From assembly GCF_039929605.1 (NCBI RefSeq), contig NZ_JBDSQX010000028.1, positions 1,575 to 65,574 of the forward strand: a DNA stretch of 64,000 bases. Direction: 5' to 3'. Below are positions 1 through 3,000 of this stretch, one piece after another. Each line of letters opens with the position of its first letter. The first letter of the stretch is position 1. The stretch comes from Roseateles sp. GTDB lineage: Bacteria; Pseudomonadota; Gammaproteobacteria; Burkholderiales; Burkholderiaceae_C. A program made the position numbers.

Positions 1-3000
1 CCCCAAGCGCGGCGCTCACGCCTCGCCCCCCGCCGCAATCAGCTCGTACTGCGGCCCGAAGCGCTCATCCAGGTTCTCGGCCACCAGCGAGGCGGCGGCG
101 ACGAGGCTGGTGTCCAGCTTGTGCAGCGCGCGCTGCGCGTTGTCACCGGCCTCGATGGAGGCGGCCACCTGCGTGGCCAGCGCCAGCACCGGCGCGAGCG
201 TGGCGGGCGCGGGTTCGGTGTCGAGGTGATGCGCGACAGCGTCGACCACGGAGGCTGGGAAGCCCAGCTCATCCAGCCACGCCGCGCTGACCTGCGCGTG
301 GTCCAGCCCACAGGCCTCGCGCTCGATGGCCGCCAGCTCCACGCCACGCGTCGAGCGGGCGCCGGCCAGCGCGGCGGGCAGTGTGTCGGCAAAGGCCTGG
401 CAAAGAATCAGGTGGCCGACGTTGTGCAGCAGGCCAGCGAGGAAGGCCGCTTCGACATCGGCGCCGGTGAGCCGGGCCAGGCTGCGCGCGGCCTTGGCGG
501 TGAGGGTCGCGTCCAGCCAGAACTGACGCAGGTTGACGCCCGGCACGGCGACGAACACGGCCTCCAGCCCGCCGCTGATGACCAACGTGCGCAGCGTGTC
601 GGTGCCGATGATGGCGACAGCGTCCTTCAGGCTGGCCAGGCTGCGGCGGCCGCAGTAGTAAGGCGAGTTGGCGATGCGCAGCGTGCGCGCGGCGAGTTGG
701 GGTTCCTGCTCCAGCTCGTCCACCAGTTCGAGGATGGAGGCGCCCGGTTCGCGCAGCTGGCTGATGAGGCGGCGCACGACACGCGGCACCGAAGGCAGTT
801 GCAGTTGCCCGCCGGCCGCAGCCCTGACCTTGTCCATCTGAAGGCTCATGTGCGCGGCCCCTTGCCGTCGGACAGCGCATCGCGGAGCTGGTCTTTCTCC
901 AGGTTCCACAGCGTCGAGTCCATGCGCTTGACGAGGACGGCCTGCTGCATCACCTCGTCTTTCAGCCCCTGGTTGGAGGCGGTCAGCGCGGAGATCTCAC
1001 GCTCCAGGCTGGCCACGCGCGACAGCGTCAGGCGCACATCGCCGACCAGGGCCTCCTGCACGGGCAGGAAGTCCAGCATGCGGGCAACGCGCTCGTTGGA
1101 CGAGCCGCTCTCCTGCAGCATGCCCTCGGCCGCCGAGGCTAACCGCGCCATCGCCGGCACCACGTCGCCCACGCCGCCGACGGTGGCCGTCGTGCGCTCC
1201 AGCACCGCTTCCTGGCTCTCCAGCCGCTCGGTGAGCCGCGCCGAGGCGCCGGCCATTTGTGCCACCTGTGGCACGAGTTGATCGAGCCGGGCCACCACGT
1301 CGGCCAGCCCCGTGGTGGACGCGCGGTGCTGCTCCAGGATGTCGGCCAGCAGCGTGGCCAGGAAGCGCTCGCTGATCTCGACGTTCTCGTTGACGCTGCT
1401 CTTCTCGGCCAGCGACAGCACATGGCCGCGCACGGCATCGACGACATCGCCCGCCGCCTTGCGCACCGCCACCATCTGGAAACCCAGCACGATGGAGCCG
1501 ACCAGGCCGAACATCGACGCCGAGAAGGCCGTGCCCATGGCCGCCAGCGGCTTTTGCAGGCCGCCGACGATCTTGGCGAACTCGCCCTCCATGTCGGCGC
1601 CGCCACCCGCGCTCTTGGCAATGGTGGCGATCAGGCTCGACGTCTCGACCAGCGTCTCCAGCAGGCCGACGAAGGTGCCCAGCAAGCCCAGGCCCACCAT
1701 CAGGCCGACCAGGAACTGGCTCAGCTCCTGGCGCTTGTTGAGGTACTGCTCCAGCGCCTCGATTTCGGGCTCCATCGCCGAGCTGTGGATGTAGACCTGG
1801 TGGCCGAGGCCGAGCTTTTGCAGCCGGTCCAGCATGCCGGTGACGAAGGCCGGCGGGCCCAGGCGCGGGTGCTGCTCGCCGCTGGCGTCGCCCTCGCGCA
1901 GCCAGCGCATGCCGGCGCGGAAGACGCGGTCCTCGGCGAACAACTCGATCAGGTGGCCCGCCATCGTCCACATGCCCCAGCACAGCACGGCAATGATGAT
2001 GCCGTTGAGGATGGGGTTGGACATGATCGCGAACGACACGAAGTGCCACATCGACGCGGCGCCCGCCAACATGGCGAACAACGGCAGCGCGACGAAGAAG
2101 ATGTGACGCACGCCGATGCCATGCTCGTGCGGCGACCTCGGCGCTCGCGGCGGCAGCGGCTCGGACACGGTGGCGATGTGGGTGTCGCTCATGGCGGTGA
2201 TCTCATTTCAGTGTTCTTTGCGCATTCCGGGCCGAGCGCCGGGCCGCTCCCAAGCCGGCCCGCGCTGGCGATGTGCTCGCGGCTCAATGCCGCGAGCATC
2301 GCCGTCCCCTCGGGGGACCGACCGGGCGAGCCGCGTTCAGCGGGGCGAGAGTGGGCGAGGGGCTTCATTTCCTGTCACGCAAAGCGGTATCGGCCATGCC
2401 GCGAATCGGCGACAGCAGGTACTGCAGAACGGTGCGGCGGCCCGTGACGACGTCGGCGCTGACGCTCATGCCGGGGCCCAGCGGCTGCGCAAAACGTTTC
2501 GCGCTCGCCGGGTCCACGGCAGAGACGACGCGGAAGTAGCGCTCGCCGCGCTCGTCGACGAGGCTGTCCGCACTGATCTCGGTGACGCGCGCTTCCAGCG
2601 TGCCGTAGGTCGTGTAGTCGAAGGCCGCGACCTTGACCCGCGTGGGCAGGCCGACGCGCAGCGTGCCGCGCTCGGCGGGCGAGGCGCGCGTCTCGACGAC
2701 GAGGGCGTCGTCCTGCGGCGTCAGCTCCACCAGCGTCTCGCCGGGCTTCACGACACCGCCCACCGTGTTGCTCGCCAGCTTGTTGACGATGCCGGCCACG
2801 GGCGCGGTCAGCACCGTGCGGCGCACGCGGTCGTTCTCGGTCTTGATGTCTTCCTCCAGCCGGCGCAGCTCCACGCGCGCATCGCTCAGTGCCGTGCGGG
2901 CCTCGCTGTGGAACTGGGCGACCGTCTCGGCCTTGCGGGCGGCCAGTTCGGCGGCGGCGGCAGCCAGGCGCGGCAACGAGGCCTCGCTCTCGGCGATCTG

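Follow-up and report, generated by a model that had tools for sequence, protein, structure and literature searches.

The closest described design to the repeat considered here is MIRU, for which the source study is reportedly that of Supply et al. in 1997. MIRU comprises units of 40–100 nt in operon spacers, with filled and empty sites, tetranucleotide direct repeats and G+C-rich internal repeats, and its open reading frames (ORFs) have ends that overlap the neighbouring genes (PMC3184786). The units are apparently mobile and insert at start codons, with the ORF coupled at −4 nt (PMC12548453). The REP2 repeats of Neisseria, by comparison, possess no inverted terminal repeats but contain two stem–loops, together with a ribosome-binding site as well as an ATG (PMC3184786), and the termini of REP elements can abut or supply stop codons (PMC3733652). 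Herein we consider family A, a hairpin repeat with three copies in a 64,000-nt stretch of a Roseateles sp. genome (contig NZ_JBDSQX010000028.1, positions 1,575 to 65,574; hereafter the window). The host genome, a 6.09-Mb draft of 67.6 % G+C, is denoted G000, other G numbers refer to comparison genomes, and the orientation of the element is given as that of the + strand of the window.

Family A is probably a MIRU-like, non-autonomous and apparently mobile hairpin repeat that homes to stop codons and stop/start junctions, a reading to which we assign a probability of roughly 0.72. A search of open-access papers, both for the sequence and for repeats in the host genera, returned no description of the family, and MIRU is its closest known design; the claim is one of similarity of design only, as MIRU is compared by its description and differs in host phylum and in the architecture of the unit. 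An earlier note on the window had recognized a multi-hairpin element placed just after stop codons, but had missed that this adjacency arises from insertion at stop codons and stop/start overlaps, that there is a shorter relative in forward orientation from which a ribosome-binding site and a start codon are obtained, and that the design most closely resembles MIRU.

The family is modular, with the following parts in order:

M1: CGGGCCGAGCGCCGGGCCGCTCCCAAGCCGGCCCG, a hairpin with an outer stem at positions 1–7/29–35 and an inner stem GAGCG/CGCTC
M2: GGCGAT-GT-GCTTGCGGC TCAAT GCCGCAAGC-ATCGCC, a long hairpin that is optional
M3: GTCCCC-TCG-GGGGAC, a short hairpin
M4: variable in sequence, in a long 'a' or a short 'b' form
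End: CGAGGGGC, the terminal motif

M2 is found in the long forms typical of Roseateles; in the other genera examined, the short forms lack it. Some copies additionally possess a left extension (M0) of up to ~60 nt, which terminates in ...GGAATGGATAACTGAT-ATG on the start of the next gene. A further tail type, 'c', is a nested two-hairpin insert of ~85 nt (CTGAGGCCGGACAC...GGTCTGCAAGACC) inside the 3′ arm of M3; at least 16 copies of this nested element exist in forward and inverted hosts, including three in G000 (C101:15576, C11:3072 and C75:5701) and one in the G008 orthologue of the first window copy.

Mobility and target preference are both demonstrated by orthologous sites that are filled in some genomes and empty in others. 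Empty junctions were predicted from four forward copies by joining the left flank, through its ATGA, to the sequence after the right-hand ATGA, and for three of the four an unbroken match was obtained in most genomes of the genus, at least 27 of them in the case of locus C157. This locus lies between two ABC permease genes. Its sequence is GGAGGCCAGCG-ATGA-ACCCG in empty genomes, and in G000 it is ATGA, an 85-nt forward element, then ATGA-ACCCG; in G003 and G045 the junction is instead occupied by a long form that bears M2 and is inverted, likewise with ATGA on both sides. At locus C75 the ATGA overlap is present in all four empty genomes aligned, with three genomes filled and one holding a decayed remnant, and at C104 (ureF–ureG) the insert lies directly after TCATGA. 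Because insertion follows ATGA and the insert itself ends in ATGA, the TGA of the upstream gene and the ATG of the downstream gene are both kept. The four forward inserts measure 89, 167, 113 and 110 nt including the terminal ATGA, and as every one of these lengths is 2 mod 3, an ORF opened at the left ATG closes on the right TGA.

The sites of the three window copies likewise differ between species. That of copy 1 is filled in G045 and G008, and in G053 nothing but a remnant of M1 is left. In G054, G041 and G023 it is empty, and there the same C-terminus (DRK-stop) is followed by a 16–19 nt spacer containing a Shine–Dalgarno sequence; in the filled genomes, TCATTTC flanks the insert on either side. 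The site of copy 2 is filled in G055, with the insert starting 1 nt after the native TGA (...AYR-stop), and is empty in G008, G022, G020 and G041; in G000 the end of the gene is remodelled (...KPRR-stop). The site of copy 3 is empty in G055 and consists there of the palindrome GGCTGA/TCAGCC, in which two convergent stop codons abut, and in G000, G021, G019 and G053 the element sits exactly between these stop codons. As a separate observation, convergent stop codons at empty sites occur within short palindromes, namely GGCTGA/TCAGCC (G055 C42:220020–220180) and CCGCTGA...TCAGCGG (G008 and G022, at the copy-2 locus), and these stop-codon palindromes correspond to element positions in other species.

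The short form without M2 is ancestral, and the M2-bearing long form of the window is derived. The former, of 78–85 nt, consists of M1, M3 and a short M4, followed by ACGAGGGGC-NNNC-ATG. Thirty-seven of 54 short copies have a codon-usage-supported gene starting just downstream in the same direction, and in 30 of these 37 the start codon comes exactly 5 nt after GAGGGG, the spacing of a Shine–Dalgarno sequence. On the left, the flank of short copies nearly always includes (C)ATGA or GTGA, the stop of the upstream gene. This ATGA frequently comes after a good ribosome-binding site, as in AGGAGG-TCAGCG-ATGA, and the left ATG can therefore be regarded as the former start of the downstream gene. 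The ancestral form is nearly free of stop codons in any frame. Roughly half of the forward copies have a frame, terminating at the downstream ATGA, that is open for hundreds of codons; judged from these frames, translation of the upstream gene would in such cases apparently continue through the element.

At one forward short copy (G000 C182:17895) the upstream gene apparently gains ~35 residues and stops on the ATGA of the next gene. This C-terminal extension recalls the Rickettsia palindromic elements (RPE) and other repeats that are joined in frame to genes (PMC3184786), and which are similarly stop-free and read through by genes. RPE, however, reside mainly inside coding regions, whereas family A is mostly intergenic and positioned at gene ends.

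With regard to distribution, 100–270 candidates are present in each of 24 genomes of the same genus. Exact matches to the M1 35-mer, with two N positions permitted, occur in many named genera, with hosts including Roseateles, Pelomonas, Methylibium, Piscinibacter, Rhizobacter, Aquabacterium, Rubrivivax, Ideonella, Sphaerotilus, Caldimonas and others. In Methylibium and the genera named after it, M3 comes straight after M1 and precedes a short M4, with no M2 between, and this short form of about 78–87 nt was matched in 53 of the 120 genera sampled from the host's family. The long form, searched for in 16 genomes from other families of the order, gave no convincing match, the lone hit in G037 being marginal (E = 1.3e-4). 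The short form also occurs in tandem arrays, with five units at a 90-nt period in G153 (C198:144232–144678) and six units at an 88-nt period in G085 (C9:222542–223063). ACATGA stands before the array in G153, and the ATGA at which the next gene starts comes after it.

In the window itself, the core hairpin pattern has three matches against 0 expected from 100 shuffles. The three copies share one orientation, and align with each other over their first ~105 nt, or over the whole ~136 nt for copies 1 and 2. Their features are as follows:

2228–2262 (+): copy 1 M1, a CGGGCCG...CGGCCCG hairpin, the conserved apical part being GAGCGCCGGGCCGCTCCCAAGC
2267–2303 (+): copy 1 M2, long hairpin GGCGAT-GT-GCTCGCGGC / TCAAT / GCCGCGAGC-ATCGCC, with paired substitutions
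2304–2318 (+): copy 1 M3, hairpin GTCCCC-TCG-GGGGAC
2319–2363 (+): copy 1 M4a, a long variable hairpin, with terminal CGAGGGGC at 2356–2363
2193–2227 (+): left extension of copy 1, ggcggtgatcTCATTTCagtgttctttgcgcattc, taking the place of the native 16–19 nt spacer of empty relatives
2365–2368 (−): ATGA at copy 1, in which the HlyD-family gene (2365–3693) stops with TGA and a mini-ORF begins with the overlapping ATG
2189–2368 (−): bridging mini-ORF at copy 1, 59 codons, MKPLAHSRPAERG...EMRSPP-stop
17442–17578 (+): copy 2, with M1 at 17442–17476, M2 at 17480–17516, M3 at 17517–17531 and M4a plus CGAGGGGC to 17578
59243–59359 (+): copy 3, with M1 at 59243–59277, M2 at 59281–59317, M3 at 59318–59331, M4b at 59332–59351 and CGAGGGGC at 59352–59359

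The terminal GAGGGGC ends at 2363, 17578 and 59359 in copies 1, 2 and 3, respectively, and minus-strand stop codons (tca) follow at 2365–2367, 17581–17583 and 59366–59368, leaving gaps of 1, 2 and 6 nt. These positions and the common orientation agree exactly with the earlier note, and every stem it had named is present (CGGGCCG/CGGCCCG, the long GCGATG...CATCGC with its paired substitutions, and GTCCCC/GGGGAC), as is the fourth hairpin of variable sequence, which in copy 3 takes the short form.

Copy 1 is situated between the HlyD-family gene and a gene for a 448-aa product; its mini-ORF starts on the stop of the former and has a terminal TGA that overlaps the ATG of the latter (846–2192). 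The TCATTTC at 2203–2209, within the left extension, is repeated at 2365–2371. Copy 2 separates two convergent genes, RapZ (+, stop 17422–17424) and a 305-aa gene (−, stop 17581–17583, in ATGA context), and copy 3 lies between a CHRD/PEP-CTERM gene (+, stop 59208–59210) and a HisA/HisF-family gene (−, stop 59366–59368). Elsewhere in the window a cobalamin riboswitch (Rfam RF00174, 83 bits) is found at 42513–42743 (+), upstream of the gene at 42867–44687.

Marks of insertion at junctions were assessed across the genome by comparing co-directional spacers of 60–300 nt that hold an inverted element with those that hold none. The upstream stop was in ATGA context in 29 % of spacers with the element and 7 % without, TGAnATG/GTG followed right after the stop in 21 % and 3 %, and a stop codon stood at −4 of the next start in 21 % and 4 %, respectively. 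A tight bridging ORF, scored in spacers of 125–245 nt, was present in 21 of 65 with the element versus 19 of 415 without (p = 5e-10). Left and right junction types tend to agree, with 11 ATGA/ATGA and six stopNstart/stopNstart pairs. None of the peptides encoded by the mini-ORFs has a Pfam match. Since codon periodicity continues up to the stop codon in genes adjoining the element, and native C-termini are retained, the stop is usually that of the gene; the possibility that the element always supplies the stop codon is excluded by this periodicity and by the native C-termini at copy 1 and at copy 2 in G055.

The census of the host genome relied on our own codon-usage-scoring gene caller, which returned 5,233 genes covering 89 % of the genome. 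There are about 144 M1-bearing copies. Amongst 95 copies typed as a or b, the GAGGGG end points toward the stop codon of a convergent gene in 89, at a distance of 0–13 nt in 85 of those, such that the placement just after a stop codon in fixed orientation, as had been claimed from the window, holds genome-wide; 67 of the 95 are between co-directional genes and 22 between convergent ones. When all M1 copies are considered, 77 inverted and 12 forward copies occupy co-directional gaps, 30 convergent gaps and four divergent gaps, with a further 12 lying within gene calls and seven at contig ends. Inverted co-directional copies are closer to the stop than to the next start in 54 of 55 cases (medians of 5 versus 37 nt). 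Divergent, promoter-containing gaps thus receive only four of ~123 placed copies, though they hold 26 % of intergenic DNA.

A placement of this kind raises the possibility, likewise entertained in the earlier note, that family A is a REP/BIME-type RNA element of the 3′ untranslated region (3′-UTR), the hairpins of which terminate transcription or guard the mRNA upstream against 3′ exonucleases, and which would adjoin the stop codon simply as a 3′-end element. Its richness in hairpins, its fixed orientation downstream of stop codons and its enrichment in convergent gaps (30 of ~123 placed copies, versus 14 % of intergenic bp) are in keeping with this, as is the known ability of REP termini to abut or supply stop codons (PMC3733652). 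Nevertheless, ~63 % of placed copies are between co-directional genes, where they span from the stop toward the next start codon and often extend to it, and the ancestral short form is positioned upstream of start codons rather than after 3′ ends. Scans of copies 1 and 2 revealed no hairpin-plus-T-run, and neither terminator-like nor promoter-like sites inside these two copies; the sole terminator-like match is at 2183–2199 on the + strand, across the start codon of the neighbouring gene.

The strand on which pairing is maintained also argues against a role in the 3′-UTR. In long forms, with one ambiguous pair excluded, the strand running from CGGGCC to GAGGGG displays 75 G.T wobbles versus 17 A.C mismatches, and in short forms the same strand has 26 versus nine. 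For the inverted long form this wobble-favoured strand is antisense to the mRNA of the abutting host gene, and hence the target of selection would be the strand of the element itself, whether as single-stranded DNA or in a transcript of the element, rather than the host 3′-UTR, although the wobble excess is only suggestive in this respect. Taken together, these observations do not support a function as a 3′-UTR stability element, and we consider this explanation unlikely.

The alternative proposal that the element is REP-like fares better in the broad sense, in that both REP/BIME and family A are dispersed, modular, extragenic and palindromic, are often at stop codons, lack their own transposase and, for family A, differ in presence between species. 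In the strict sense it does not stand: REP is a single palindrome of 20–40 nt with a GTAG or CGTC tag and a flanking RAYT gene, whilst the unit of family A is 78–137 nt with three to four different hairpins. The host genome does possess two Y1_Tnp (RAYT/IS200-like) genes (C17:62802–63524 and C108:22760–23632), but the short repeat at the flanks of both, which contains GACCCCAT, is unrelated. Membership of the REP/RAYT class is rejected on these grounds, and a link to the RAYT-like genes is similarly rejected, even though one family A copy is located 10 nt beyond the C108 stop codon.

A second explanation of comparable standing, and one we also hold to be improbable, is that of a cis-regulatory leader or intercistronic RNA, in which M1 binds a global regulator, CCCCUCG/CGAGGGG pairing hides the ribosome-binding site and the copies constitute a regulon rather than mobile DNA. 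The apical sequence of M1, unchanged across genera, the location of GAGGGG at a fixed 5 nt from start codons, and the wobble excess on the mRNA-sense strand of forward copies (26 versus 9) all speak for it, as does covariation. As single-sequence folding barely exceeds that of shuffles on both strands (z = −1.4 and −1.8), it is on covariation that the assessment of structure relies. In 60 short forms from many genera, 95 % of cells within M1, M3 and M4 are paired versus 25–49 % with slid partners, and 67 double-sided changes are seen versus 15 in shuffles, with none of 500 shuffles as high. These changes are mostly in M3 and M4, with AU/GC/CG covariation at the two outer pairs of M3; the invariance of M1 in this set follows from how the set was selected. 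The structural evidence counts for the MIRU-like reading as well.

The CGGGCCG/CGGCCCG stem of M1, unchanged among the window copies, does show compensatory changes in other copies and in orthologues. Variants of the outer stem include CGATTCG/CGAATCG and CAGGCCG/CGGCCTG, and orthologous copies covary between GGTCCG/CGGACC and GATCCG/CGGATC. At the ureF–ureG junction of G046 and G007 there is a diverged relative with the outer stem AAAAC/GTTTT in which the apical CGCCGGACCGCTCCAAG is retained; as the stem differs and yet this sequence stays, the relative reveals the constrained part of M1.

The regulatory proposal is weakened by the helix on which it would depend. The earlier note had pointed to an alternative fold between CCCCTCG and CGAGGGG; this anti-Shine–Dalgarno pairing is possible in 93 % of cells, and to that extent the complementarity stands and favours the proposal, but pair 45/84 is broken without compensation in 14 of 60 sequences, so the helix is maintained by conservation alone, with no covariation in its support. 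Furthermore, more than 100 copies per genome sit beside unrelated genes, their presence differs between species at orthologous sites, they form tandem arrays, and the dominant Roseateles form is inverted relative to genes. Family A also has no Rfam match at the gathering score, with a best permissive hit of E = 0.59 that is chance-like. A regulatory role can nonetheless be compatible with mobility, as a mobile element could have been co-opted.

Derivation from a known single-stranded DNA system is very unlikely, the candidates being an IS200/IS605-type palindrome-associated element or a REP moved by RAYT, with ATGA as the target tetranucleotide, or else attC-like sites. The lack of terminal inverted repeats and of a long target duplication, the hairpins near the element ends, ATGA in the left flank and at the insert end, the strand-specific wobble bias and the two Y1_Tnp genes would all suit it, and attC sites, too, come after stop codons and adopt their fold in the bottom strand. 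Against it, one junction is used in both orientations, unlike a strand-specific tetranucleotide target, the distance from hairpin to stop varies (0–13 nt), the repeat beside the Y1_Tnp genes is a different one, with only one family A copy near one of them, and the copies are dispersed rather than in cassette arrays beside an integrase. As for a DDE-type miniature inverted-repeat transposable element, this is rejected: inserts and junction alignments reveal no terminal inverted repeats common to the element ends, and the flanks have no excess of direct or inverted repeats.

Returning to the MIRU-like reading, the two families resemble each other in several respects. MIRU is present in tens to hundreds of copies (~144 per genome for family A), and inserts at a start or stop/start overlap with a tetranucleotide on both sides, just as ATGA brackets the family A element at C157 and C75. 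Its internal ORF overlaps the flanking stop and start, and so, as predicted from sequence, would that of family A (59 codons at copy 1, 21/65 spacers, and 4/4 forward inserts in phase). G+C-rich internal inverted repeats and tandem arrays (five units in G153 and six in G085) are further common features. With regard to orientation, that of MIRU is fixed in operons, whilst in family A each subfamily has a strong bias of its own, the short form being forward (37 versus 10) and the long form inverted (77 versus 12 with all forms pooled).

Differences are equally apparent. MIRU has an actinobacterial host and family A a proteobacterial one; in family A one 35-nt hairpin is invariant to the letter and two to three others covary, the forward form carries its own Shine–Dalgarno sequence, and a large subfamily, to which the window copies belong, is inverted and is also found between convergent genes, where coupling is unneeded. 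Neisseria REP2 serves as a second, partial analogue, since family A is also without terminal inverted repeats. REP2, however, has a promoter and marks a contact-regulated gene set, whereas family A has no promoter-like site in copies 1 and 2, and is tied to the upstream stop codon.

Several observations weigh against the interpretation of family A as a mobile, MIRU-like repeat. No mobilizing enzyme was found for it, and no linked transposase. The native spacer at copy 1 has been replaced entirely rather than split. ATGA or TGAnATG is present at the stop in only about half of inverted long-form copies, which implies either a loose target rule or drift of old copies. In a genome-wide test the flanks scored 4.72 versus 4.71 in controls, so that long target duplications find no general support, and a target of 3–4 nt is indistinguishable from an element that carries its own ATGA. 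Open frames are partly to be expected of an element that is GC-rich and stop-poor, and indeed all three frames are open in forward copies. Finally, copies within one genome are non-independent, and the wobble and covariation counts are inflated as a result. GC skew, examined as a guide to replication direction, was uninformative, as local skew tracks gene strand in this draft genome.

With these points in mind, a mechanism for the MIRU-like repeat can be proposed. The ancestral form inserts right after an ATGA stop/start overlap and, its own end being ATGA, restores the start codon, with the GAGGGG of the forward form supplying a Shine–Dalgarno sequence 5 nt ahead of it. Either a mini-ORF or the upstream gene can then read through the stop-poor element and terminate on the next start codon. 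The derived long form, with its extra M2, lies mostly inverted to genes, with the GAGGGG end 0–13 nt past the stop codon and, in many copies, a left extension that reaches the next start codon. We infer that this compact, stop-free and junction-restoring design makes insertion into operons nearly harmless, with hand-over of the ribosome to the next gene preserved, as has been proposed for MIRU. The hairpins, chiefly M1, may be recognition structures for a trans-acting mobilizing factor, which would act on one strand of the element, possibly as single-stranded DNA.

A bolder suggestion, which we offer tentatively and regard as rather doubtful, is that the invariant M1 is the handle of a mobilization machinery that places DNA with precision at stop codons and ATGA overlaps, in either orientation and via one folded strand. 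This would represent a class of mobile DNA that homes to stop codons and has no terminal inverted repeats, its design common to MIRU-like families of other phyla but of separate origin in the Burkholderiales.

If the MIRU-like reading is correct, betaproteobacteria would own a version of the MIRU design, one that settles in operons without breaking them by rebuilding stop, ribosome-binding site and start. The question of how such elements find junctions can be approached through a 35-nt hairpin that is identical across dozens of genera, through clean filled and empty sites, and in cultivable hosts such as Roseateles, Rubrivivax and Methylibium. In genome annotation, the family is a source of spurious small ORFs and C-terminal extensions, and its tandem arrays could serve as typing markers. 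It also alters intercistronic spacing in housekeeping operons, amongst them those for urease, ABC transporters and histidine synthesis.

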